DNA of 31,938 nucleotides, taken from positions 1-31,938 of IMG/VR virus record IMGVR_UViG_3300040985_002016; one strand, 5' to 3'. The stretch is from a virus. Taxonomy: Duplodnaviria; Caudoviricetes. Under the pieces are notes generated by a model. The model saw only the letters and a program-made list of their open reading frames with translations, did not search any database and was not told where the DNA came from. The position numbers were made by a program, and so were the translations under genes. Of the stretch, positions 17,853 through 31,938 are shown piece after piece (position 1 is the stretch's first letter; each line of letters begins with the position of its first letter).

Positions 17853-19289
17853 ATGGCGAAACGAACCGCGCTGATCGCAGCAGAGTACAGAGAGCGGATC
17901 GAGTACGTGGCGTCGCGGGCGCCCATCGGGGCTCGCACCCTCGTGGACTTGCTCCTGGTCTGGGGGCATCCGAAGATAGCGAAAGGCACCGCAAGGGCGG
18001 TCCTCGAAGAGCTCGGCCTCTCCTGGGCTAGGTCTGCGCGCTACGCTGCAAGGGCCGAGGCCCTACCGTTGGCCAGAGAGGCCCAGGAGCTCCACGAGGG
18101 GCGGCCTGCCTCTCCTATGGTGAGCGCCTCTCCTGACGCCGATGGAGGGCTCACCTACGACTCTCACGGCACGGATGTACGGACCCTCGAGCAGCTGGTC
18201 GAGGTGTGTGAGATCGATCTCGATGCCTTCCTGATCACGAGCGTCGAGTACAACAAATGGGCCGTAGGGGCTACGGGCCCGGACGGGAGGCTTGTCACAA
18301 CGCCCCTGTTCCAGGTCAAGGCAAAGACCATGCCGAGGCCCATGGCGCGCCTGGAGCGCGCGCCTCCGCGCTTCCTGCCCCCTCCAGAGGCCTCGCCAGA
18401 GCCCGCGGCGGTGCCTTGCATGCTGCTCATCCCGGACACGCAGTGTGGGTATGTCTGGAACGACAACCACACTGTTCTGACCCCTCTGCATGACCGCAGG
18501 GCAATGGATGTGTACCTGCAGGTCGCGGACCTGCTCCAGCCGGAGCGCATCGTGCTCCTGGGCGACATGTTGGACCTCGCGGCCTGGAGCATGAGCTACA
18601 CCGCGGGCCCAGGAGCGCTGGAGACTACACAGCCAGCGATCAACGTCCTGCACTGGTTCCTTTCCGAGCTCCGCCGCCTGTGCCCTCATGCGCGCATCGA
18701 CATCATCCCGGGCAACCACGAGCACCGGATCGTGAGGAGGACGCGCAAGCACATGGCCGAGGCCTCCCGGCTCACGCAGGCGTGCGGAGGGAGGCCGGTC
18801 CTATCGTTCGAGCACCTGCTCCGCCTTGACGAGCTTGGCGTGACCTGCGCAGCCCCGTACGGGGAGCCTGGCGCGGACTTGTGGATATGGGGCGACCTCT
18901 ACAGCCACGGCTACAAGGTGAGGCCAGGAGGGGGAGCGACCGCAGCGGCCACGCTCAAGGCGTCCACCCGGTCGAGCGCCTACGGCCACGTGCACAAGGT
19001 AGAGGTCGCATGGCGCACCCTGCACGAAGAGGAGGGGACACGCTCCATCTGGGCAATGAGCCCCGGCATGGGATGCCTGCCCGACGGCACGGTGCCAGGA
19101 GTCACCCACAGGCCGGACTGGCTCCAGGGGTTCGCAACGGTCGAGCTCGATCCTACCTCGGGTAAGACGTACCCCACGCCCTACCCGATCCTTGACGGCG
19201 TGGCGGTCCTGCGCGGTCGCCGCATCGAGGGCAGGGACCGCGCAGAGGAGATCGCCGCAGCTATCGGCTACCCACAGGTCGCAGGGTAG
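17853..19289 (+). CDS. calcineurin-like metallophosphoesterase with N-terminal extension
   Basis: PDTQ, GDMLD, GNHE, SHG and GHVH motifs; AGGAGG RBS. Confidence 0.85.
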   Translation: MAKRTALIAAEYRERIEYVASRAPIGARTLVDLLLVWGHPKIAKGTARAVLEELGLSWARSARYAARAEALPLAREAQELHEGRPASPMVSASPDADGGLTYDSHGTDVRTLEQLVEVCEIDLDAFLITSVEYNKWAVGATGPDGRLVTTPLFQVKAKTMPRPMARLERAPPRFLPPPEASPEPAAVPCMLLIPDTQCGYVWNDNHTVLTPLHDRRAMDVYLQVADLLQPERIVLLGDMLDLAAWSMSYTAGPGALETTQPAINVLHWFLSELRRLCPHARIDIIPGNHEHRIVRRTRKHMAEASRLTQACGGRPVLSFEHLLRLDELGVTCAAPYGEPGADLWIWGDLYSHGYKVRPGGGATAAATLKASTRSSAYGHVHKVEVAWRTLHEEEGTRSIWAMSPGMGCLPDGTVPGVTHRPDWLQGFATVELDPTSGKTYPTPYPILDGVAVLRGRRIEGRDRAEEIAAAIGYPQVAG

Positions 19290-21461: not shown

Positions 21462-22253
21462 ATGGCAGGAATACCGAAAGGATGGCAGGTGCTCGAGGTG
21501 GGAAGGCGTCGCGCGCTGGCGTGGCTGCCGGATACGGCCACGCGGCTCATGGTCTCGTGCCACGGCGGCGGAGACGCTGGCGGATGGCGCTGCGCGCGAC
21601 AGGCCGCGCGCCTGTCAGCGCTCCAGGCGTCGGGAGAGTGGGCTCTGGTGTGTCCCGAGTCGAGACAGGTGAGCCTACTGGACGGGCGCAGGGTGAGCGT
21701 GTGGGCGGTGCCGCGGGAGGGATGGCGCGAGCTCTTCGCGCCAGATGGAGGGGTCGAAGAGGACCGCGTGCTGTGCAGGGTGATCCGGAGCCGCATCATC
21801 AGCCGATACAAGGGCAAGGCCACCAAGGCGGCCCTGACGGGCTTCTCCTCGGGCTCGGGGCTTGTTTGGGATGCAGCGGCCGCAGATGACGGATGGGACG
21901 CCTACGGGGCAGTGGGAGGAGGCCTCCCCTTGCTCCTGCAAGGGGCCCCTCCTCCAGAGCGCCCCGTATGGTTCTCCATGGGAACGGAGGACGAGGGATG
22001 GAGTGGGAAAGACGCGCGCCTCTCCCACGCAGCCACAGCAGAGTGGCTAACCCAGGGCGCCCCCCAGCTGTTGGCGGAGCATGCCATCCAGCCGCCGCCA
22101 GGAGGGGTCCTGGAGGCATACAGCAACGGGCAGGGACGCTCCTCCGTCATAGGGGCCTATGCGAGGGGGCACGAATGGCCGGATGACCATGGCTTTGACG
22201 CAGGCACAGCCATGGTGCGAGCGTTCGAGTGGCTGTGGGCGCATTCGGACTGA
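21462..22253 (+). CDS. alpha/beta hydrolase (LpqC/PHB-depolymerase-like esterase)
   Basis: HGGG oxyanion motif, GFSSG nucleophile, GTED acid and GHEWP histidine. Confidence 0.8.
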   Translation: MAGIPKGWQVLEVGRRRALAWLPDTATRLMVSCHGGGDAGGWRCARQAARLSALQASGEWALVCPESRQVSLLDGRRVSVWAVPREGWRELFAPDGGVEEDRVLCRVIRSRIISRYKGKATKAALTGFSSGSGLVWDAAAADDGWDAYGAVGGGLPLLLQGAPPPERPVWFSMGTEDEGWSGKDARLSHAATAEWLTQGAPQLLAEHAIQPPPGGVLEAYSNGQGRSSVIGAYARGHEWPDDHGFDAGTAMVRAFEWLWAHSD

Positions 22254-22266
22254 TCCGCTAAAGTGG

Positions 22267-22295
22267 TTGCACTAACAGCGACCCGTCGCTAGAGT
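22267..22295 (+). promoter_or_regulatory. putative early-operon promoter with palindromic operator
   Basis: TTGCAC-17 nt-TAGAGT; dyad TGCACT..AGCGAC-CC-GTCGCT..AGTGCA. Confidence 0.55.
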
Positions 22296-22346
22296 GCATG
22301 CACAATTCACCACAGCGGCCATGTGCCGCTTTCACCAGGAGGCAGG

Positions 22347-22856
22347 ATGCCTTTCGACCACTCGTGGGTCAATGAGGACTACGCGGACCCCGCACCAAGT
22401 GCGGCGGGTCAGTTCTTGAAACTCAAGGACGGCGACTCCGTCGATCTGATCATCGTGGGGGCGCCTTACCACTTCTGGAAGGCATGGGACGAGACCTCGA
22501 AGCCCAAGCAGCGCTTCGTGGTCGAGGTGTTCCGGACCGACACGGAGGAGCCCGGCCCCACCCAGTGGATGGAGGTCAGCGGCCCCACCTGGGGGGACAT
22601 CCTCTCTGCCCTGCGGACCGTCATGAAGAAGAAGAAGTCGAGGGGCCGGACCGCAGAGCTCACGCTCAGCCGGACGGGCTCCGGAGCGACAGACACCCGA
22701 TACAAAGCCAACGCAATGTTCGCAGACCCTGAGGATGTGGTGGCGGCGGAGGAGGCGGAGGAGGCGTCCACCCTGGAGCCGAAGGAAGAGTGGATCCCGT
22801 GCTCGAGCAACGCCAGCGGCAAGCCCCCGTCCGCCTCCGAAGACATCCCTTTCTAG
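22347..22856 (+). CDS. single-stranded DNA-binding protein (gp32-like)
   Basis: FLKLKDGDS, RTGSGATDTRY and an acidic tail ending EDIPF. Confidence 0.7.
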   Translation: MPFDHSWVNEDYADPAPSAAGQFLKLKDGDSVDLIIVGAPYHFWKAWDETSKPKQRFVVEVFRTDTEEPGPTQWMEVSGPTWGDILSALRTVMKKKKSRGRTAELTLSRTGSGATDTRYKANAMFADPEDVVAAEEAEEASTLEPKEEWIPCSSNASGKPPSASEDIPF

Positions 22857-22880
22857 CCCCGTACAGCAAAGGAAACGCCC

Positions 22881-23984
22881 ATGTATGTGATGACTGACGA
22901 GCACCGGAAGCGCCTCCCCGAGTATCGGGACATGGCGATCGCCAACGCATTCAGCGTCGAGCCCATGACGGCGCTCGACCGGGAGATCTGCACCGCAGCG
23001 GCCAAGGCCTCGTACGCCCTTGCCAAGCTCGAAGAACCGCGCGTTGTCTTTGCCTCCTCGCCCATCGCGGGACAGGGCGCCGCGGGCATCGGGGTGGCTC
23101 TGGAGGAGGCCCCTCCCGAGCGCTTGGACGAGCTACTTGCCGCGGTAGATAAGCTCAGCCCGCACCTGCGTCAGGTGGCTATGGTGGCCCTTGCCGCCGC
23201 CGGACACATCGAGCAGAGCCCTGGAGACACCGAGCTCCGGGAGGAGGGCCAGACTCAGGACCGTTGGGTGTCCTTCGCGAGCCCAGACCCGCTTTTTGCG
23301 GTGCTGGGCCGCAACGCGGCCCGACGCCATGCCCGGGCCGCTGCGGATGCGTGCCAGGGTGGCAACCAGTGGTCAGGCCCCTTGGGCATGTATGAGTTCT
23401 TCCGCGAGGTCGCGCAGCTGGACATGGACTGGGCCCCATGGCTCCCATGGCGCGACCTGTGCAAGCACAGCGGGCCACGCTTCGAGACCGAGCACTTCGT
23501 GGTGGTCTGCGACCGGCCCGAGTTGCTGTGCCTGGACGAGGACAACCGGCCTCACTCCTTGGAGGGGCCTGCGTGCCGATGGCGTGATGGCGCGGCCTAC
23601 TACGCAGTGCACGGGGTCTATGTCCCTGGCTGGGTGGTCGAGCTTCCCGAGGCCATCACGCTCGCCCACATCGACGACGAGGAGAATGCGGAGGTGCGCA
23701 GGGTCATGATCGACCAGTTCGGCGTGGGCAAGTACGCCGACGCTGGCGAGACCGTCGACAAGTGGCATGACGAGAAGGGCGGGCCCATGCGTCTGCTCCG
23801 GCGCATTGTGCCAGGCCAAGAGGAGCCCGTTCAGTTCCTGCAGATGACCAACAGCACGCCCAACCCGGATGGGACGGTCAAGCAGTACTGGGTTCGCGTG
23901 GACCCTGAGATCGTGAGCTGCATGGACGCCCGGAACAGCATCTGCCAACTGTGGGATGGCGCAACCATCGACACGCAGACGTGA
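22881..23984 (+). CDS. DUF6745-like protein
   Basis: DRP..LDEDNRPHSLEGPA..WRDG..Y.VHGV.VP, EENAEVRRVMI, NSTP.PDG..K.YW.RVDP. Confidence 0.8.
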   Translation: MYVMTDEHRKRLPEYRDMAIANAFSVEPMTALDREICTAAAKASYALAKLEEPRVVFASSPIAGQGAAGIGVALEEAPPERLDELLAAVDKLSPHLRQVAMVALAAAGHIEQSPGDTELREEGQTQDRWVSFASPDPLFAVLGRNAARRHARAAADACQGGNQWSGPLGMYEFFREVAQLDMDWAPWLPWRDLCKHSGPRFETEHFVVVCDRPELLCLDEDNRPHSLEGPACRWRDGAAYYAVHGVYVPGWVVELPEAITLAHIDDEENAEVRRVMIDQFGVGKYADAGETVDKWHDEKGGPMRLLRRIVPGQEEPVQFLQMTNSTPNPDGTVKQYWVRVDPEIVSCMDARNSICQLWDGATIDTQT

Positions 23985-24184
23985 CACCGCGCCGTCGCGT
24001 AGAAGAGGCGACCAAGAGGGCCACATCGCAGCGCACTGCGTGCGTGACCGACCGGAAGACGTACCAGGCGATCTACATGTGCCTGAGGGGTCACGGTTCG
24101 GTGGACTACCAGGCTTGGCACGCAGTGGCGCGTGCCAACGCCTGGGTATGGACGAACAACCAACAAACGAGGAACGACCGATGA
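23981..24184 (+). CDS. xxAT-repeat family mini-protein (diverged)
   Basis: GTGA/ATGA-coupled; EEATKRAT...AWHAV..AWVW. Confidence 0.5.
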   Translation: MTPRRRVEEATKRATSQRTACVTDRKTYQAIYMCLRGHGSVDYQAWHAVARANAWVWTNNQQTRNDR

Positions 24185-24528
24185 AGAAAACGATCAATGT
24201 TGCGCGGCAAGGGGATGTGACCATGGTGCGTTGTGACGCGCATCCGACAGGATGGGCCCGGGCGCCCCGTTGGCCTACGCCGCTGCCCCCGATCAAGGAT
24301 CACCTGCTTGCAGAGGGCGACTCCTCAGGGCACAGCCATCACATCCGAGGGCGCATGCTCGAGCAGGGTGGAGAGATCTACATCCGCCTCGAGGAGGCGA
24401 CCCCGTTGCGCATCGAGCCAGCGCCGGAGGAGATCCGCCACGGACGGATCACGCTCGACGCAGGAGACCACGTGGTGCGCACCCAGGTCGAGTACACGCC
24501 CGAGGGCGAGCGCGACGTTGCGGACTGA
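24181..24528 (+). CDS. RQGDV / GHSH His-rich protein (usual DUF6745 neighbour)
   Basis: RQGDV, LAEGDSSGHSH, H..I.L..G...V..Q.EY motifs. Confidence 0.8.
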   Translation: MKKTINVARQGDVTMVRCDAHPTGWARAPRWPTPLPPIKDHLLAEGDSSGHSHHIRGRMLEQGGEIYIRLEEATPLRIEPAPEEIRHGRITLDAGDHVVRTQVEYTPEGERDVAD

Positions 24529-24689
24529 GCACGCATCGTTTGTCAGGCAGGCCACAAGCCGGGCGACCAGAGGGAGGACCGTAGCCTCCTCGCCAGAGGA
24601 GACATGTGGGAGGCGGCTATAGCCGTGCGCCCGGCTACGACAGGGCCTGTGTGGCCTGGAGCGAGACTCGCAGGAAGAGAGGTGTGGAA

Positions 24690-24866
24690 GTGAAGAACGT
24701 ACGGTACGGCACACAACACGCCACATGGGACGCGACACGTTACGCCGCGCGGCTAGCGGTGGTGACGCATCCCGCCTGGGATGCTGCGTGGCGGCCCACG
24801 TGGGCCGCGCCGCAGACCGCCGTGCGGATAGCCGCAAGGGGCGCCACCTACGAGGTGTGGAAGTGA
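24690..24866 (+). CDS. xxAT-repeat mini-protein
   Basis: VKNVRYGTQHATWDATRYAA...GATYEVWK. Confidence 0.6.
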   Translation: MKNVRYGTQHATWDATRYAARLAVVTHPAWDAAWRPTWAAPQTAVRIAARGATYEVWK

Positions 24867-27490
24867 CGCAGCCGGATCCTGCTCCTGCCGAGGTATGGCC
24901 GCGGAAGGTCGACTATCAGACGACCGTGTACCCCCATGAGAGGGCGCTGGAGATCGCTGCTGCGATCTCGGACCGCTACGAGGGCCAGCTCTACCGTGTT
25001 GGGGGCCGCCTGGTGCGGATCCAGGGCCAGGACGCGGCGCCGCTGGCCAAGGTTGAGTTCCAGGCCTTGGCAAGCGCAGCGGTGTACATCCGCGACCGAG
25101 GAGGGAACTACCACCCGGCGCCAGAGAGGACCCTGCGCGAGGTCTACTACTTCGAAGCGCTCGCGGCCTCGAAAGAGGGGATCGTGCGAGCGCCGTGGAT
25201 GGCCTCAGACGGCACCCTATACGGTAGGCGCCGAGAGGACCACGGGGAGATCCTGTCCCTGTATGACAGCGGGCCCATTCCCACGGGGATGACGCGAGAG
25301 GAGGCTGAGCCGGTGCTTGAGCGCCTCCTGGACTACCGTTGGGACTCGGACGAGGACCGGGCCGGGTACCTGGCCGCGCTGGTGCAGTGCGTACGCCAGC
25401 CGTGCTTGTGGGGCGAGGGCGCGCCGCTCTACCTCATCCAGGCCACGGACAAGGATAGCGGCAAGACCTACGCCGCCTCGGTCCTCTCCCTGCTCCTGAC
25501 GGGCAAGATCACCAACACCCTGCACCTGCCTACGAGCCAGCGCGAGCGCGAGTACTCCCTCTCCTCGTTCCTTCAGAGCGGCCCCTCGCTCGTCTGGCTG
25601 GACAACCTGGCCACAGGGTCGACCGCGGGAGGGAGCGACCTACACGCCCTCCTGACGGCCCGTGGAGGCCTCGCCTCGCGGGTCATCGGGTCCAACGCGA
25701 TGGCACTGGTGGACCCGACCCGTCCGTTGTGGGTGGCGACTGGCAACCAAATCGACGTGGACGACGAGTTGGGACGCCGCATCGTATCGATCAAGATGAG
25801 CCCGCGCGCCGCAGGCAGCGCCTACAAGACCCGAGACCTACTGGGTTGGGTGCGCGACAACCGCGCGCTTGCGTTGGGGGCGCTCTTTACGGTCGCACGC
25901 ACCCAACCCAGTGCGGTGCGTGAGCTGCGCTTGAGCAGCTACCCGACCTGGGGAGAGCTCGTGGCCGCGCCCGTCGAGGCGTGGACCGGAGCGGGCCGCA
26001 TTGGCTCCGAGGTCGCGAGCGGCATTGAGCTCGAACTGGTCCGCCTGTGTGAGGAGTGGCCCAGGAGCAAGGGCGAGCCTGCGCCCCTCACCATGGCGGC
26101 GCTGCTCGCCACGGTGAAGGCCCGCGGCATGTATCGCATCATGGAGCTGACAGCGGGCCGGAGCTCCAAGGACGCGGTGTTGGGGCGATGGGTCGCCAGC
26201 ATTGCCGCTCGGAGCAGGCCTATCAAGGGCTGGCGATTAATTCGAAGAAGAGGCGCGAAAGGGGTGCGGGTCGTGTTACCCTCACGAGACCCCGCCTACA
26301 TCGCCAACGATGAGCGACAAGGGGGGTCGGTTGTGACAGTAGCCCCCTCGAACCGTCACCCGCAAAGTGACGGTTCGACTACGGGGTCTGATGGATGTGT
26401 CGGATGTGACGGACAGTCACCCCCCTCTCATGTTCAGTTTCAACAAGAACCTCCCCCAACTACTGTCACAACCGCAACAACCATCATAGGGGATAGTAGT
26501 AACTGCAATATGCAGGTGACGGATGGGGTGCACTTGGAGGAGCAACCGTCACCCAGGGACCTGTGGGGGCCATGGGTCCTCCAGATGGCCACTCGGGGCA
26601 TCTACGTCGACGCAGAGCTCTGGGATGCCCGGTGCACCGCTGCTCGAGTCGAGCTAGCCAAGCGCGCCGCTGACTCGGAAGCGGACGCCTCACGCCTCCG
26701 TGCCTTCGAGGCCTACGCGCAGCCCGTACTTGACCAAGCCACAGCGGGAGACGGTCGCGTGCGCGCCGAGTGGGTCGAGCAGGGCCCTGGACGCTGGGGC
26801 GCCACAAACCCGCCCATCCAGACGGTCACGCGCTCCTACGGGCTGCGTGATGCGTTCCAGGCCCCCACGGGCCGCACGCTCATCGTGTCGGACTGGAGCG
26901 CCGCACACATGTGGATAGCCGCAGGCCTCTCCGGAGACCCCGAGCTCACCAGGGAGCTCCAGGACCCGGACGCCTCCCCCTACCGCCGCCTCGCGGTCGA
27001 GTCAGGGGCCACCCTCGTCCAGGCCAAGCGCGGCGCCCTGGCCATCCTGAACGGGGCCGGCGTCCGCAAGGTCGCGTCCATCCTGGGGGTCAAGCCCCGC
27101 ACCGCAGCAGCAGCGCGGACGGCATGGCTCCGCCCCTACAAGACCCTGCGCCATCGGATAGGCCTCTGGCGTGAGGAGAGGTCCTGGCTCTCCCCGGAGG
27201 GGCGTACGATCAAGCTCCCAGCGGGCGCACCGCGCCACGTGGCGCTGGCGTGGCGCTGGCAAGCAGCGGAGGCGGACGCCCTTGGCATCGCGCTGCAGCT
27301 GCTCGAGGCCCAGGACATCGACGTGGTGCTCACAGTCCACGACGAGCTGATCTGTGAGGTCGACGAAGGCGCAGCGCCTATGGCGCTCCCTCTCGTCCAA
27401 GCAGCCATGGCCCAGGCCCTTGGACAGGTCTGCGGCCTCCAGGGCGAAACGAAAGCAAGAGCCACCAACACATGGGGAACCGAATGCTGA
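24863..27490 (+). CDS. helicase (AAA+/SF3-like) fused to a divergent family A DNA polymerase domain
   Basis: DSGKT, WLDN, ATGN and LGRR in the helicase; GRWGATNPPIQ, SDWS, AK...NG and TVHDEL in the polymerase; GTGA-coupled start. Confidence 0.85.
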   Translation: MTQPDPAPAEVWPRKVDYQTTVYPHERALEIAAAISDRYEGQLYRVGGRLVRIQGQDAAPLAKVEFQALASAAVYIRDRGGNYHPAPERTLREVYYFEALAASKEGIVRAPWMASDGTLYGRRREDHGEILSLYDSGPIPTGMTREEAEPVLERLLDYRWDSDEDRAGYLAALVQCVRQPCLWGEGAPLYLIQATDKDSGKTYAASVLSLLLTGKITNTLHLPTSQREREYSLSSFLQSGPSLVWLDNLATGSTAGGSDLHALLTARGGLASRVIGSNAMALVDPTRPLWVATGNQIDVDDELGRRIVSIKMSPRAAGSAYKTRDLLGWVRDNRALALGALFTVARTQPSAVRELRLSSYPTWGELVAAPVEAWTGAGRIGSEVASGIELELVRLCEEWPRSKGEPAPLTMAALLATVKARGMYRIMELTAGRSSKDAVLGRWVASIAARSRPIKGWRLIRRRGAKGVRVVLPSRDPAYIANDERQGGSVVTVAPSNRHPQSDGSTTGSDGCVGCDGQSPPSHVQFQQEPPPTTVTTATTIIGDSSNCNMQVTDGVHLEEQPSPRDLWGPWVLQMATRGIYVDAELWDARCTAARVELAKRAADSEADASRLRAFEAYAQPVLDQATAGDGRVRAEWVEQGPGRWGATNPPIQTVTRSYGLRDAFQAPTGRTLIVSDWSAAHMWIAAGLSGDPELTRELQDPDASPYRRLAVESGATLVQAKRGALAILNGAGVRKVASILGVKPRTAAAARTAWLRPYKTLRHRIGLWREERSWLSPEGRTIKLPAGAPRHVALAWRWQAAEADALGIALQLLEAQDIDVVLTVHDELICEVDEGAAPMALPLVQAAMAQALGQVCGLQGETKARATNTWGTEC
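26333..26552. repeat. GTGAC/GTCAC array with a 12-bp perfect inverted repeat (candidate replication origin)
   Basis: 8 copies in 220 bp; TCGAACCGTCAC-7 nt-GTGACGGTTCGA at 26348-26378. Confidence 0.6.
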
Positions 27491-27681
27491 GGAACACACG
27501 GCGCGCCACACAGGGCGCCAAGGCGCACTCCGCCACATGGCACGCCACAAAGGCCGCTACAACGGGAGCCCTGGCCAAAGCCACAGGGCGGCATGGGTGG
27601 ACTCTTGTAGATCATCGCGCGAACCGGTTCGAAGCACGGGATGTCGCCGAGGTGTGGCGACAAGGGGAGGTGTGGAAGTGA
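27484..27681 (+). CDS. xxAT-repeat mini-protein
   Basis: RRATQ..SATWHATKAAT...EVWRQGEVWK. Confidence 0.6.
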   Translation: MLRNTRRATQGAKAHSATWHATKAATTGALAKATGRHGWTLVDHRANRFEARDVAEVWRQGEVWK

Positions 27682-27917
27682 GAGCAGAACGGAAACGCAC
27701 GATCATGGCGAAACGGTCCGAGCTGATGCAGGCGCGCGCTGAGCGGGTCCTGGAGAAGCTCAAGGACGGGAAGTGGGCGCGGACAGTGGACGTAGCCCAG
27801 GGCCTCCCCTGGGCGACCCTCACTGTCCGCCAGGCCCTGCACCTGCTCAAGGACGAGGGCAGGGTAGAGGTCTACCAACCCATCGGGTGCCGCGCGATGT
27901 TCTGGAGGACCACGTGA
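27678..27917 (+). CDS. winged helix-turn-helix protein
   Basis: TVDVAQGL...TVRQALHLLKDEGRV plus a wing ending FW. Confidence 0.75.
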   Translation: MRAERKRTIMAKRSELMQARAERVLEKLKDGKWARTVDVAQGLPWATLTVRQALHLLKDEGRVEVYQPIGCRAMFWRTT

Positions 27918-28012
27918 ACGCGCGCCACGCCACAGAGGACGCTACAGGGGACGCCACATGGACCGCCACACATGGCGCCACCCGCAACGCCAGAAGCGAG
28001 GTGTGGCGATGA
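27914..28012 (+). CDS. xxAT-repeat mini-protein
   Basis: VNARHATEDATGDATWTATHGATRNARSEVWR. Confidence 0.6.
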   Translation: MNARHATEDATGDATWTATHGATRNARSEVWR

Positions 28013-28173
28013 GGGACGCCACGCTGGACGCCACACGGCGCGCCACACGGGCCGCCACGCCGGACGCCACATGGGACGCCACACGGGCCGCCACATGGCG
28101 CGCCACATGGCGCGCCACACGGACCGCCACACAGACCGCCACACGGCACGCCCGAAGCGAGGTGTGGCGATGA
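28009..28173 (+). CDS. xxAT-repeat mini-protein (12-bp tandem repeats)
   Basis: MRDATLDATRRAT...RHARSEVWR. Confidence 0.6.
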   Translation: MRDATLDATRRATRAATPDATWDATRAATWRATWRATRTATQTATRHARSEVWR

Positions 28174-28355
28174 ACCACGATCGAACGCCAGACAAGGCCC
28201 CTCCGCCCATCGCAGAAGAGCCAAGAGAGGAGTGGAGGAGAGGGGCCACGTGGACCACGTGGACCAAAGGAGAGTGGAGGGCCAGAGACGCGACCGAGGC
28301 TGCAGGGTGGCTTGTGTGGGGAACCGTGGCTTGGCTGGTAGAGGTGTGGCGATGA
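28170..28355 (+). CDS. Trp-rich mini-protein of the EVWR family
   Basis: GATWTTW..RDATEAA..VEVWR; coupled at both ends. Confidence 0.55.
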   Translation: MNHDRTPDKAPPPIAEEPREEWRRGATWTTWTKGEWRARDATEAAGWLVWGTVAWLVEVWR

Positions 28356-28960
28356 GCGGATCTCTTGGCATCGATCCCGGCCTGACCAGCGGCGCAGCGG
28401 TGCTCCTGGGAGAGGACGGGCTGCTCGACTGGACGGATCCCTGTTGGTACACCTGGCAACAGCTCCACCGGAAAAAGGGCACCGTGTGGCGCGTCCGCAA
28501 CGCCAAAGGAGAGTGGACGGCCAACTCACCCTTCACAGCGCTCCGCATCGGACGAAACCGCACCCACATGACCATGGCCATACCGGACGTGCTCGCCGTG
28601 GAGCTCATCTTCGCGCAGTCAAGGCCGCAGATGGGTCTGGTGGCGCTGGCCGAGGCCGCTGGCGCAGCGGTGCAGCTCTACTGGGGCGCTCCCAAGGTCA
28701 TCCGCCCGAGCGCGGCGAGCTGGCGCAAGCATGTCCTGTGCATTCCCGGCAACACAAAGGCCAAAGAGGCGGACAGGGCAGCAAGGGCGCACATCATCCG
28801 AACATGCGGAGGCCTCCCGCGCAAGAGGTACGGGGAGCGCGAGGAGCGCCTCACGAGCGTCGAGGTGGGCGCCTTGGTTGACGCGACATGTATCGCGATG
28901 TATGCACTTGACGGCCTGCACAGCGATAGTGCATGCTCCACAGAGAGGGGCGCTCGATGA
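28352..28960 (+). CDS. RuvC-like Holliday junction resolvase
   Basis: LGIDPG, AVE, P....WRK and DA..IA motifs. Confidence 0.85.
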   Translation: MSGSLGIDPGLTSGAAVLLGEDGLLDWTDPCWYTWQQLHRKKGTVWRVRNAKGEWTANSPFTALRIGRNRTHMTMAIPDVLAVELIFAQSRPQMGLVALAEAAGAAVQLYWGAPKVIRPSAASWRKHVLCIPGNTKAKEADRAARAHIIRTCGGLPRKRYGEREERLTSVEVGALVDATCIAMYALDGLHSDSACSTERGAR

Positions 28961-29202
28961 TAGCGACGGACACACGGCACGCCACATGGGACGCCACACA
29001 GACCGCCACACGGGACGCCACATGGGACGCCACACAGACCGCCACACGGGACGCCACATGGGACGCCACACAGACCGCCACACGGGACGCCACATGGGAC
29101 GCCACACAGACCGCCACACGGCACGCCACATGGGCCTCCACCCGGACCGCCACATGGGACGCCAGAAGCGAGGTGTGGAGCGCCCCTTGGGGTACGCAAT
29201 GA
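28957..29202 (+). CDS. xxAT-repeat mini-protein
   Basis: (WDATQTATRDAT)n...WDARSEVW. Confidence 0.6.
   Translation: MIATDTRHATWDATQTATRDATWDATQTATRDATWDATQTATRDATWDATQTATRHATWASTRTATWDARSEVWSAPWGTQ
28981..29124 (+). repeat. 4 x 36-bp tandem repeat built from 12-bp GCCACA units
   Basis: GCCACATGGGACGCCACACAGACCGCCACACGGGAC x4, with one mismatch in the last copy. Confidence 0.95.
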
Positions 29203-29399
29203 AGCGCAAAATCTGGTGGTACAACCCTGGGTGGTGCGTGGCTTCAGCCACGCACGTTGCTACAGGAAGGGCCGCGATGGGCCTTGCGCCTGGATGGGAC
29301 TACTGGCGCGCAGAGCGGAAATTCGTTCAAGGGCCGGCAGCACAGGCGGCGGAGAGGGTCTGGCGTGATGACACGCCCTCAAGGGAGTGGCTGGAATGA
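29199..29399 (+). CDS. Trp-rich mini-protein (diverged family member)
   Basis: ASATHVAT...ERVWR; ATGA-coupled at both ends. Confidence 0.5.
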   Translation: MKRKIWWYNPGWCVASATHVATGRAAMGLAPGWDYWRAERKFVQGPAAQAAERVWRDDTPSREWLE

Positions 29400-30025
29400 T
29401 CTTCACTGACTCTGAGACCGTGCCTCTGTTCCAGGGCAAGGCGAGCGACCTGGACCCGGAGCGGGTGGACGAGCTGGGCAAGAGCGCGAGCCTTGATCCG
29501 CATCGGTCGCGGTTGCTCTGCCTGGGCCTGGCTTGGGAGGAGGAGGAGCCCGAGGTGCACTACGCGCTGCACCCAGAGGACGAGCTTGCGGTCCTGGGCG
29601 TGCTTTGGCGCGTGTTGAAGGAGCACGGTTATCCCATCGTAGGGCATCATGCGCAGGGCTTCGATGGTCCCTATGCGGCTACGCGTGCGCTCTGGTGGTA
29701 CTACCAGACAGGGCGCCCGCTCCTGGCCGAGCTTGTGAAGATGCTGGACCCGAAAGGGCGGTACAGCGATCGGTACTACGACACCACGATCAAGTACCCA
29801 AGCGCATGGGGCCATTTCAAGAGGACCCACAAGCGCAGCGCCAGTGCCATCGCGGGCTTCCTGGGGCAGCCCTACGACGACGCGATCGACGGGTCCATGG
29901 TGTGGAGGGCCTACATCGCGGGGCGCCATACTGACATCCAGGACCATTGCAGGGCAGATGTGGCCAGGAACAGGGACTTGTGGAAGGCCCTGGAAGGAAA
30001 GCTTGAGCGGAGGGGGCGCCTGTGA
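29396..30025 (+). CDS. stand-alone DEDD 3'-5' exonuclease (PolB-exonuclease-like)
   Basis: ExoI TDSET, ExoII GHH..GFD, ExoIII HC.ADV. Confidence 0.8.
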   Translation: MIFTDSETVPLFQGKASDLDPERVDELGKSASLDPHRSRLLCLGLAWEEEEPEVHYALHPEDELAVLGVLWRVLKEHGYPIVGHHAQGFDGPYAATRALWWYYQTGRPLLAELVKMLDPKGRYSDRYYDTTIKYPSAWGHFKRTHKRSASAIAGFLGQPYDDAIDGSMVWRAYIAGRHTDIQDHCRADVARNRDLWKALEGKLERRGRL

Positions 30026-30378
30026 AGCAGCTACGCATAGCGCCAGAGCAGTGGAAGGAGGCAGAAGGGCTCCGAGACCAGAGCACGCCCGAGGGCTCGT
30101 ATCGCTCGGTGAGTTCCGTGTGCCGTGAGGCCCTCGAGGAGGGCTTAGCCGTGTTGCAGCGGTCTGTGCCGGTCACGGTCGTGATCGAGGCCCACACGGA
30201 CTCCACGCTCAAGCAGTGGACCCTGCTCCAGGGCAAGGCGGAAGCGATGGAGCTGGAGCACGACGTGTGGAAGGGGCAGTGCGTGGTGAGAGGGCCCCTC
30301 GAACACGTGACGGAGCTGATCGACTACGCCAGAGGGCTAGACATCGTGGCGCGCGTATGGCGCCAAGGGGAGCTGTGA
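30022..30378 (+). CDS. RHH-like regulator with a small C-terminal alpha/beta domain
   Basis: KQLRI...SVSSVCREALEEGL N-terminus. Confidence 0.55.
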   Translation: MKQLRIAPEQWKEAEGLRDQSTPEGSYRSVSSVCREALEEGLAVLQRSVPVTVVIEAHTDSTLKQWTLLQGKAEAMELEHDVWKGQCVVRGPLEHVTELIDYARGLDIVARVWRQGEL

Positions 30379-30487
30379 TGGACCGGAGCGCGATGAACTG
30401 GGCGGCGGTGCTGTCCGTGTGGGCCTTCTGCTTGGCCGCATGGGCGTGGTTGTGAGTGGCCCAAACCGAGACCAACAGGAGGATGAG

Positions 30488-30922
30488 ATGCAGATAGGGG
30501 AGCTGGTGGGCGCTGTGGCGGACTTGGCTGAGGCCATCCTGCCCGATGAGGACGCCAGAGCGGAGATCGCAGACCGTGAGGGCAAGCTTGGTGAGCTCGT
30601 CCAGAAGGAGCGCGAGCTCTTGGGACAGTTGGCTAAGGTGCGCGGCCTGATCATGGTGCACCGCACCGTGGCAGAGGCCCTGGGTGCGCTGCTCGACAAG
30701 GTGGCCGCGCCCAAGAAAGGGGAGCGTACGCGCGCATCCAAGAGGGAGATCGAGGAGAGGGACGAGAAGGTCAAGGCCATGCTTTCCACCTTCTCCGAAG
30801 GCGTGACCACGAAGGAGGTGGCAACGGCCCAGGACCTCACCCAGGGGCAGGCGAGGGCCTCGCTCAAGCGCATCGGTGCGGACATCGATGGTGAGTACTG
30901 GTACGCAGAGGGGAGCCGATGA
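30488..30922 (+). CDS. coiled-coil plus C-terminal HTH protein
   Basis: AGGAGG upstream; VTTKEVATAQDLTQGQARASLKR. Confidence 0.6.
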   Translation: MQIGELVGAVADLAEAILPDEDARAEIADREGKLGELVQKERELLGQLAKVRGLIMVHRTVAEALGALLDKVAAPKKGERTRASKREIEERDEKVKAMLSTFSEGVTTKEVATAQDLTQGQARASLKRIGADIDGEYWYAEGSR

Positions 30923-31272
30923 GCGTCTATACATCGGTGTCAGTGACGACGAGCGCGCGCGACGCGTTCAAGGCCCAGATCAGAGCAGAGGATGCAATCC
31001 GGGGTAAGGGACGGCGCGCGTTGCACGACGTGCTCACGGAGCTCCTGGAGGAGTACGTCCGACAGTCGCAGGAGGAGGGGCGCAGAGAGGATCTCCGTGA
31101 GCAGAGAGCTCTTGGTCGACCTGCGCGATGGGTGAACGTGACGATCGCTGCGAAAGCTGTGGGGGTACATGCCTCGACGCTGTACGGCCTGAAGGGCATC
31201 GAGAAGGACCGCACACAGACGCCGATGCTTGTAGAGCTAGGCTCCGTCAGGCGTGCTCTGGCGGAGCAATGA
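30919..31272 (+). CDS. DNA-binding protein (RHH-like N-terminus, HTH C-terminus)
   Basis: WVNVTIAAKAVGVHASTLY helix-turn-helix. Confidence 0.6.
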   Translation: MSVYTSVSVTTSARDAFKAQIRAEDAIRGKGRRALHDVLTELLEEYVRQSQEEGRREDLREQRALGRPARWVNVTIAAKAVGVHASTLYGLKGIEKDRTQTPMLVELGSVRRALAEQ

Positions 31273-31463
31273 GGCCGATTGACAGGACGATTGAGGCGCT
31301 GACTGCGCTGAAGGAGTCGGCGGACGGAAGGGCGGACAGGGCGCGTGTCTCGATGGAGAGGCAGGGCTCTGGGCGTGTGAGGGCAATGGAGGCAGCAGCA
31401 AGGGCGGACACGCTGGCGCTGGCCTTGAAGGTGGCCCGTACAGCGGCCAAGGAGGCGGAGTGA
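31269..31463 (+). CDS. small helical hypothetical protein
   Basis: ATGA/GTGA-coupled; MRPIDRTIEAL... Confidence 0.5.
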   Translation: MRPIDRTIEALTALKESADGRADRARVSMERQGSGRVRAMEAAARADTLALALKVARTAAKEAE

Positions 31464-31660
31464 CAGAAGCACGGATGGCACGGATCAGGCTTAGCAATCA
31501 GCTGTACCGCGTAGAGGGAGCAGTGGTACACCGGGCCCATCCACGTACGGTCAACCGCGCAGACGAGGAGGTGTGGAGAGAGGTACACGGGATGGAGTGG
31601 CTGAGCTTCGCTGGCGCCATGATGGCGAGGGAGGAGGTGTGGAGAGCACGGGCATGGTGA
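31460..31660 (+). CDS. EVWR-family mini-protein
   Basis: Two EEVWR motifs (GAGGTGTGGAG at 31568 and 31634). Confidence 0.5.
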   Translation: MTEARMARIRLSNQLYRVEGAVVHRAHPRTVNRADEEVWREVHGMEWLSFAGAMMAREEVWRARAW

Positions 31661-31848
31661 GCAGGACCAGGGAGCTGCAGGCCGCGACCCTGTATGTGAT
31701 CACGCGCACGTTGCGCGCAATGGCGGACGCCGGCGCCACGGTCAATGCCGCCTGGATGACCATGGACCCGACCGAGGACGCCTCGTGGGACTGCATGGAG
31801 CACGTATGGGATGCCAGATGGGGCGTTGAGGAGAGCGGAAAGAACTAA
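31654..31848 (+). CDS. mini-protein, possible diverged family member
   Basis: QAAT..GAT.NAAW..DASWD..HVWDARW. Confidence 0.45.
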   Translation: MVSRTRELQAATLYVITRTLRAMADAGATVNAAWMTMDPTEDASWDCMEHVWDARWGVEESGKN

Positions 31849-31878
31849 CGGAGTGTGATCTGGTCCGTTGATCCCGGG

Positions 31879-31938
31879 CTGTCTCTTATACACATCTCCG
31901 AGCCCACGAGACGGACTCCTATCTCGTATGCCGTCTTC
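31879..31938 (+). other. Nextera adapter read-through with i7 index (library artefact)
   Basis: CTGTCTCTTATACACATCT-CCGAGCCCACGAGAC-GGACTCCT-ATCTCGTATGCCGTCTTC. Confidence 0.98.

Follow-up and report, generated by a model that had tools for sequence, protein, structure and literature searches.

Diversity-generating retroelements (DGRs) use a reverse transcriptase and are marked by adenine-specific variation, whilst the T-even internal protein (IPI-type) cassettes are a polymorphic set of small phage proteins that have a terminal motif in common, and the known member counters a host defence; their sequences are not made of tetrads, nor are they known to stem from a fused scaffold. Among the systems closest to the subject of this study is the DUF6745 family (PF20530; phrog_31813), which is widespread and has no described function. 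Together with phrog_27831 it is represented by gp174/gp175 of the Microcystis phage Ma-LMM01 and gp38/gp37 of prophiGD102-1, where the same core domain is found with an adjacent His-rich partner. The locus considered here lies on a 31,938-nucleotide (nt) stretch of DNA from an uncultured phage, IMG/VR record IMGVR_UViG_3300040985_002016, which is referred to in its entirety as the window. Between positions 22,881 and 31,848 it carries a DUF6745 gene, a gene for a His-rich partner termed RQGDV and a dispersed set of tiny genes, here called mini-genes, many of them with a four-residue xxAT repeat. In the fused form of DUF6745 a tract of such tetrads belongs to the protein itself, whereas the core in the window lacks it and separate genes encode the repeat instead.

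A comparable repeat is found in Mycobacteriophage Tweety gp54 (with Che8 gp57 and PMC gp51), which two reports describe as a tetrapeptide-repeat, mutationally tunable counter-defence protein (PMC2884959, PMC9262239). Escape mutants with a changed number of tetrapeptides overcome Phrann gp29/gp30 (PMC9262239). As with the mini-genes, the Tweety unit is 12 nt long, combines two fixed with two variable residues and varies in copy number (PMC2884959), and its variation falls at codon positions 1 and 2 with third positions fixed, as computed here and as also stated in PMC2884959. Unlike the window, the Tweety repeat is described there as internal to a single protein, tuned by copy number and not split into many genes. 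The resemblance does not extend to homology, as gp54 has no PF20530 match and gives E=6 with a profile of the DUF6745 alignment (A1). The Bordetella phage BMP-1 bbp36 VR2 repeat, cited in PMC2884959, shares with DGRs and with the window a concentration of amino-acid diversification in a phage gene. Unlike DGRs, the variable positions in the window are not adenine-specific and the diversity is spread over paralogous genes; the contig, at about 40% completeness, showed no reverse transcriptase. Literature searches, outside whose scope lay most subscription papers and bioRxiv supplements, returned no paper naming DUF6745 or PF20530 and nothing on a split layout under tetrapeptide-repeat, small-open-reading-frame or counter-defence topics.

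The DUF6745/RQGDV core

The core consists of two genes:

22881..23984, + strand: DUF6745 protein, 367 amino acids (aa), GGNQW subfamily, without an internal tetrad tract (PF20530, E 8e-30)
24181..24528, + strand: RQGDV His-rich partner, 115 aa, predicted all-beta (phrog_27831 family; adjacency in homologous loci)

The original prediction, made from the DNA letters and without database searches, called the first gene DUF6745-like, and this identification holds: its product scores 104 bits against PF20530, where the curated cut-off is 27, and every one of its 108 other matches at E<=0.001 carries PF20530. The accompanying statement that such proteins often contain an internal tetrad tract, absent from this copy, is likewise correct. 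Across 189 fetched loci and the window, 156 copies contain the tract, 16 lack it and 18 are truncated or unclear. Most close homologues have an xxAT tract, which in many of the 60 listed sits between the conserved N-terminal and GGNQW blocks; it extends from 4 to 71 tetrads (49 measured), and many homologue contigs end inside it. The window protein has a tract score of 9, compared with 87-512 in the tract-bearing homologues listed, and a non-repetitive helical/loop linker replaces the tract. The tracts of the closest homologues run in the same xxAT register as the mini-genes of the window.

The pairing of DUF6745 with RQGDV, also put forward in the original prediction, is usual. A partner homologue lies no more than 1.5 kb from DUF6745 in 59 of the 67 loci with enough flank (35 upstream, 24 downstream), and phrog_27831 is matched by all of the aligned partners (53/53). 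In the window one small open reading frame (ORF) separates the two genes. The partner family has four conserved His columns, of which the window copy keeps H51, H53 and H87, with Glu at the fourth. Models of both proteins are confident, with predicted local distance difference test (pLDDT) values of 88 for DUF6745 and 81 for the partner. Compared with the PDB they gave no clear match, with best Z scores of 4.8 and 3.3 and no Foldseek match at E<=0.001, and a sequence search of the PDB with the partner profile gave none. Among predicted viral structures, the DUF6745 protein of Ma-LMM01 matched best; the window DUF6745 protein, used as the sole query against viral contigs, found no relative.

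Several further forms of DUF6745 were encountered. A cyanobacterial cluster of 72 proteins has DUF6745 fused to leucine-rich repeats, which hints, as a lead only, that the core may pair with variable recognition repeats. Chromosomal homologues in actinobacterial genomes (L181-L189, where L-numbers denote homologous or repeat-containing loci in the comparison) have degenerate QL-type tracts or none, and several are without an adjacent partner. L027 and L063 contain near-identical DUF6745 segments, one with the tract and the other collapsed to about one unit, representing either a natural deletion or an assembly collapse. A different repeat family, of dinucleotide-like ORFs of the RSLS/GHGQ/GNGY types, forms a cluster near a tract-bearing DUF6745 at L045:4013-6162.

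The mini-genes

Twelve ORFs had been listed as an approximately 11-member tetrad-repeat family. Their membership was assessed with two tests, neither of which was trained on window sequence: a 4-column matrix built from 2,497 internal tetrads of homologues, and a hidden Markov model (HMM) trained on free mini-genes, 27 in number, that belong to other phages, compared with 300 shuffles. For each ORF the matrix p value and the number of shuffles that reach its HMM score are given:

23981..24184, + strand: 67-aa ORF between the core genes, diverged/borderline, no EVW (p=0.11; 2/300)
24518..24622, + strand: 34-aa ORF, TTG start, short xxAT stretch (p=0.017; 0/300)
24604..24693, + strand: 29-aa ORF, EVWK tail only, junction motif at 24679 (p=0.44; 31/300)
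24690..24866, + strand: 58-aa diverged xxAT mini-gene, clear member, ends EVWK (p=0.004; 0/300)
27484..27681, + strand: 65-aa diverged xxAT mini-gene, clear member, two EVW copies (p=0.003; 0/300)
27914..28012, + strand: 32-aa xxAT mini-gene, 5 units, EVWR (p=0.0005; 0/300)
28009..28173, + strand: 54-aa xxAT mini-gene, 11 units, EVWR (p=0.0005; 0/300)
28170..28355, + strand: 61-aa Trp-rich diverged member, EVWR (p=0.005; 8/300)
28957..29202, + strand: 81-aa near-perfect xxAT mini-gene, 15 units, 36-nt higher-order repeat (p=0.0005; 0/300)
29199..29399, + strand: 66-aa Trp-rich borderline member (p=0.026; 9/300)
31460..31660, + strand: 66-aa ORF, two EVW copies, no detectable repeat (p=0.52; 131/300)
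31654..31848, + strand: 64-aa diverged member, no EVW (p=0.052; 0/300)

For three control ORFs, 104-155 of the 300 shuffles reach the HMM score, and the best six of 673 six-frame segments of the window by the matrix are all listed ORFs. Of the 12, therefore, five are clear members (24690, 27484, 27914, 28009, 28957) and five are diverged or borderline (23981, 24518, 28170, 29199, 31654), whilst 24604 and 31460 have the EVW tail only and no detectable repeat. The feature is thus real and somewhat smaller than first stated. The ORFs at 24518 and 24604, one with the repeat and the other with the tail, may be a single frameshifted mini-gene with 24518 as its 5' part; over 24518-24693 the run contig X1 agrees with the window sequence. 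When 22300-31850 was compared with contigs of four DNA runs, a single letter change, at 27572, fell within a mini-gene and no variants in length appeared, in a comparison where contigs drop rare variants and the best run, a seawater metagenome, may be the source sample; no RNA run was among those listed as containing the sequence. No close relative of the phage was found, searches with the partner and 24690 giving only self-clusters, and 28957 had no tblastn match among cultured phages when low-complexity sequence was filtered. Neither the partner nor the mini-proteins match Pfam, NCBIfam or PADLOC.

All 12 are open frames of 29-81 aa with ATG, GTG or TTG starts, and each overlaps its upstream neighbour, as had been pointed out for nearly all of them. 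This is not distinctive, because from 22347 onward the genes form a single + strand chain whose members, ordinary genes among them, overlap at 21 of the 23 junctions between 22347 and 31848, and start/stop overlap is a property of the whole operon.

The repeat unit is 12 nt. In 31 units from the three cleanest genes, positions 1, 2, 4 and 5 vary (1.16-1.44 bits) and positions 3 and 6 barely do so (0.41 and 0), the variable positions being mostly C/T, G/A, G/A/C and A/C/G. The same codon-position trend, with other codons, is seen in L001, L054 and L082. Such a signature fits homogenisation at the DNA level combined with retention of amino-acid changes. Ala-Thr repeat cores occur 44 times in frame and once out of frame, on a background of 0.17 per 100 nt.

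The EVW tail, proposed as a second mark of the family, requires a different explanation. EVW is found in 8 of the 12 ORFs, and the DNA encoding EVW[RK], GAGGTGTGG, is present in 10 copies where 0.41 would be expected. All are in frame, and six lie exactly 2 nt before an overlapping RTGA start/stop. Shine-Dalgarno sites are established in bacterial translation, and the position of these six copies suggests that in this phage GAGGTG acts as such a site for the gene that follows. Unrelated frames that have no repeat end in this junction too, in 21 of 21 viral loci, so the tail is weak evidence of family membership, and a protein family motif is ruled out as its main explanation; it is mainly the ribosome-binding junction of the following gene. 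The mini-gene at 24690..24866, for instance, supplies the ribosome-binding site of the polymerase-like gene. In other phages, too, the free repeat genes share a tail of their own: those of L089 end in a GAGG-plus-ATGA junction, those of L086 in GAGG overlapped by an ATG, and those of L001 and L082 in yet other ways. The tail is therefore a phage-specific cassette end. Four copies in the window lie beyond coupling distance yet remain in frame, from which it appears that duplication, and perhaps a constraint on the peptide, also contribute.

Co-occurrence with tract-less cores

The mini-genes had been expected to co-occur with DUF6745 and RQGDV genes, and they do so whether the search begins from the core or from the repeat. 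The core-first set comprised 137 GGNQW-type loci, of which 111 have the tract and 11 lack it, the other 15, truncated or unclear, being left out of the comparison. Free xxAT genes lie beside 6 of the 11 tract-less and 5 of the 111 tract-bearing loci (Fisher p 4e-5), counts to be read with the caveat that many tract-bearing loci have one flank only. Expressed as density, there are 23 free genes in 139 kb around tract-less cores compared with 6 in 983 kb around tract-bearing ones, and after clustering at 70% identity the proportions are 3/4 and 4/70. Three of the five tract-bearing loci with free genes proved to be unrelated low-complexity sequence. The other two, L092 and L159, hold genuine free genes together with a short tract, and possibly represent an intermediate state.

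The first repeat-DNA scan gave 29 loci, 23 of them internal DUF6745 tracts and six (on five contigs) outside. Three repeat-first scans pooled, and not de-duplicated, gave 221 loci: 126 internal; six internal with a second off-frame, opposite-strand or unrelated match; 36 outside DUF6745; and 53 without a qualifying tract. By inspection, the 36 outside loci include five contigs with clear free repeat genes, one of which is also in the core-first set, and the partner is present in 5/5. DUF6745 is full-length and tract-less in L239, L244 and L327 (= L054), a fragment in L219 and missing from L221, whose record is 7% complete. The remainder are other scaffolds (L235/L308, L331), L297, L310, three unresolved cases, and simple perfect repeats or weak low-complexity matches. 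Furthermore, when a mini-gene profile was compared with 1.84 billion proteins, DUF6745 proteins made up 117 of the best 150 matches.

In a tree of the cores the tract-less copies are scattered among tract-bearing ones. Holding seven tract-less cores as one clade was rejected (p-AU 0.001; quick LG+G4 tree), the constrained group having been chosen by tract state, although only once the initial tree was known; the tree does not separate loss from regain, and the window's own position in it is unsure. The split layout recurs and, judged from these sequences, arose more than once; it was not found in print within the literature searched.

Locus L001 deserves separate mention. At L001:9426-20398 there are five dispersed xxAT mini-genes ending EFIED/EFIAD, and the DNA at each stop resembles a -35 promoter box. 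There is no RQGDV partner within the locus, and near the mini-genes are what we take to be rIIA/rIIB-like genes.

The cultured phage Ma-LMM01

In Ma-LMM01 the tract-less DUF6745 protein gp174 adjoins its partner gp175 (L211:4992-6523). Some 13 kb from this core, gp137-gp157 (L216:36752-41397) form a chain of 21 paralogous small genes with a shared start/stop junction, which possibly constitutes a second kind of library. A transcription table records gp137-151, gp157, gp174 and gp175 as transcribed at 3 and 6 h (PMC5780444). Their co-expression class, B5, is uninformative, as most genes in the portion of the table considered are B5 (PMC5780444).

Proposed mechanism and alternatives

On balance, it is probable that the variable helix has been split off as a library of about ten small repeat genes, whose products would dock on the tract-less DUF6745/RQGDV core in trans. 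In such a scheme the xxAT tract would have been excised from the DUF6745 gene by fission and multiplied by 12-nt slippage and unequal recombination. The 3' end of each copy would carry the ribosome-binding/start junction of the next gene, so that copies could be inserted into the operon without breaking translation and could diversify whilst still serving the core. The mini-peptides would be helical and would complete the core as interchangeable binding surfaces that determine which variable host target it recognises, a defence protein being the most plausible. An anti-defence role is itself a tentative and somewhat unlikely suggestion, drawn by analogy with Tweety gp54, which is non-homologous; PADLOC anti-phage defence profiles matched 0 families for six proteins (core and mini-proteins).

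A number of observations weigh against docking in trans. Free repeat genes are not seen at five of the 11 tract-less loci, namely L002/L003, L027 and two short contigs, and a search of the whole records of L002 and L003 (54 and 59 kb fragments) and L027 found none; L027 is 92% complete, but its DUF6745 copy is shortened and partner-less. Repeats of the same type also occur away from the core, as internal xxAT tracts in two other scaffolds with no DUF6745 nearby (L235:799-1452 and L308; L331:9614-10375), L235 being without a Pfam match, and as xxAT segments in the 6-kb contigs L297 and L310, which have neither core gene. The small-gene array of Ma-LMM01 lacks a 4-residue period, the rest of that genome not having been scanned for tetrad genes, and the codon signature of L086 is less clean. 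Within the window protein the linker is 100 residues long, compared with 67-98 in other tract-less cores, and is modelled with two helices that could stand in for the tract. The long branch of the window core and the loss of one conserved His from its partner would also fit decay, and, as the contig is about 40% complete, a tract-bearing copy may lie elsewhere in the genome.

The mini-proteins may alternatively descend from the DUF6745 tract and act alone as decoys or inhibitors of host proteins, co-occurrence then reflecting origin and not partnership. This is unlikely, though many copies are kilobases from the core and strongly diverged, four split cores have long end branches (0.68-1.31 compared with a median of 0.32) and xxAT tracts work in other scaffolds, because the partner is kept in all five clear free-repeat contigs and DUF6745 in four of them, and because split cores retain the N-terminal and core blocks in several independent lineages. 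Improbable, too, is a tolerated 12-nt minisatellite spreading with a built-in ribosome-binding junction, the peptides being by-products of which many are decaying. The Shine-Dalgarno nature of the 3' motif and its presence after unrelated viral frames would agree with such an element, as would the range of copies from perfect to unrecognisable and the possible frameshift at 24518/24604. The frame bias of the repeat cores, the variation of amino-acid-changing positions with third positions fixed and codons differing between phages, and the tie of free copies to the tract-less state are not what it predicts.

That the Trp-rich mini-ORFs are translational control elements, tuning downstream replication genes by coupling, is very improbable. 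Members do lie directly upstream of the partner, polymerase-like, helix-turn-helix-like and exonuclease-like genes and carry their ribosome-binding sites, but in other phages the same repeat genes stand in tandem arrays or have other tails (L082, L089, L001), the repeat is normally inside a protein, and coupling control does not explain the diversification of amino acids. It is equally hard to credit the mini-genes as cassettes that donate DNA, through gene conversion, to a tract-bearing gene in the part of the genome that is missing. The contig is both linear and incomplete, and L092 and L159 do have both tract and free copies; free copies are nevertheless rare by tract-bearing genes (2 real/111) and common by tract-less ones, and the mini-genes retain starts, stops and coupling.

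Genomic context

The record is linear, with a terminase-like gene at its left; positions 1-18 and 31876-31938 of the window are sequencing-library adapter and not phage DNA. No sigma-70 promoter-like site was found in 22000-31938. Two larger genes of the chain were assigned:

24863..27490, + strand: large gene whose C-terminal domain resembles family A DNA polymerases (PF00476, E 2.6e-12)
29396..30025, + strand: 3'-5' exonuclease-like gene (PF10108, E 8.7e-9)

In the 875-aa product of the former, a short polymerase-like domain follows an N-terminal region that is unnamed (phrog_10537, phrog_29234; with a P-loop-like stretch), and the exonuclease-like gene is separate from it. A metallophosphoesterase gene is located at 17853-19289 (phrog_20266, E 9e-37).

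Implications

If the mini-peptides do complete the core in trans, many variants would be co-expressed from one operon and combined with one scaffold, unlike DGRs or single tunable repeats. With its tract-less core and transcribed array of small genes, Ma-LMM01 can serve as an in vivo model. In its broadest form the proposal, which is possible although far from secure, is that the specificity of a conserved two-protein machine comes from exchangeable helical mini-proteins, a library of which the genome encodes, that the library arose several times by repeat fission and spreads as self-contained translation-junction cassettes, and that it would provide a combinatorial adaptor repertoire against host defences without a reverse transcriptase. 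Completion in trans would give a first handle on DUF6745 and its partner, and would account for tiny Trp/Ala/Thr-rich ORFs that annotation drops.

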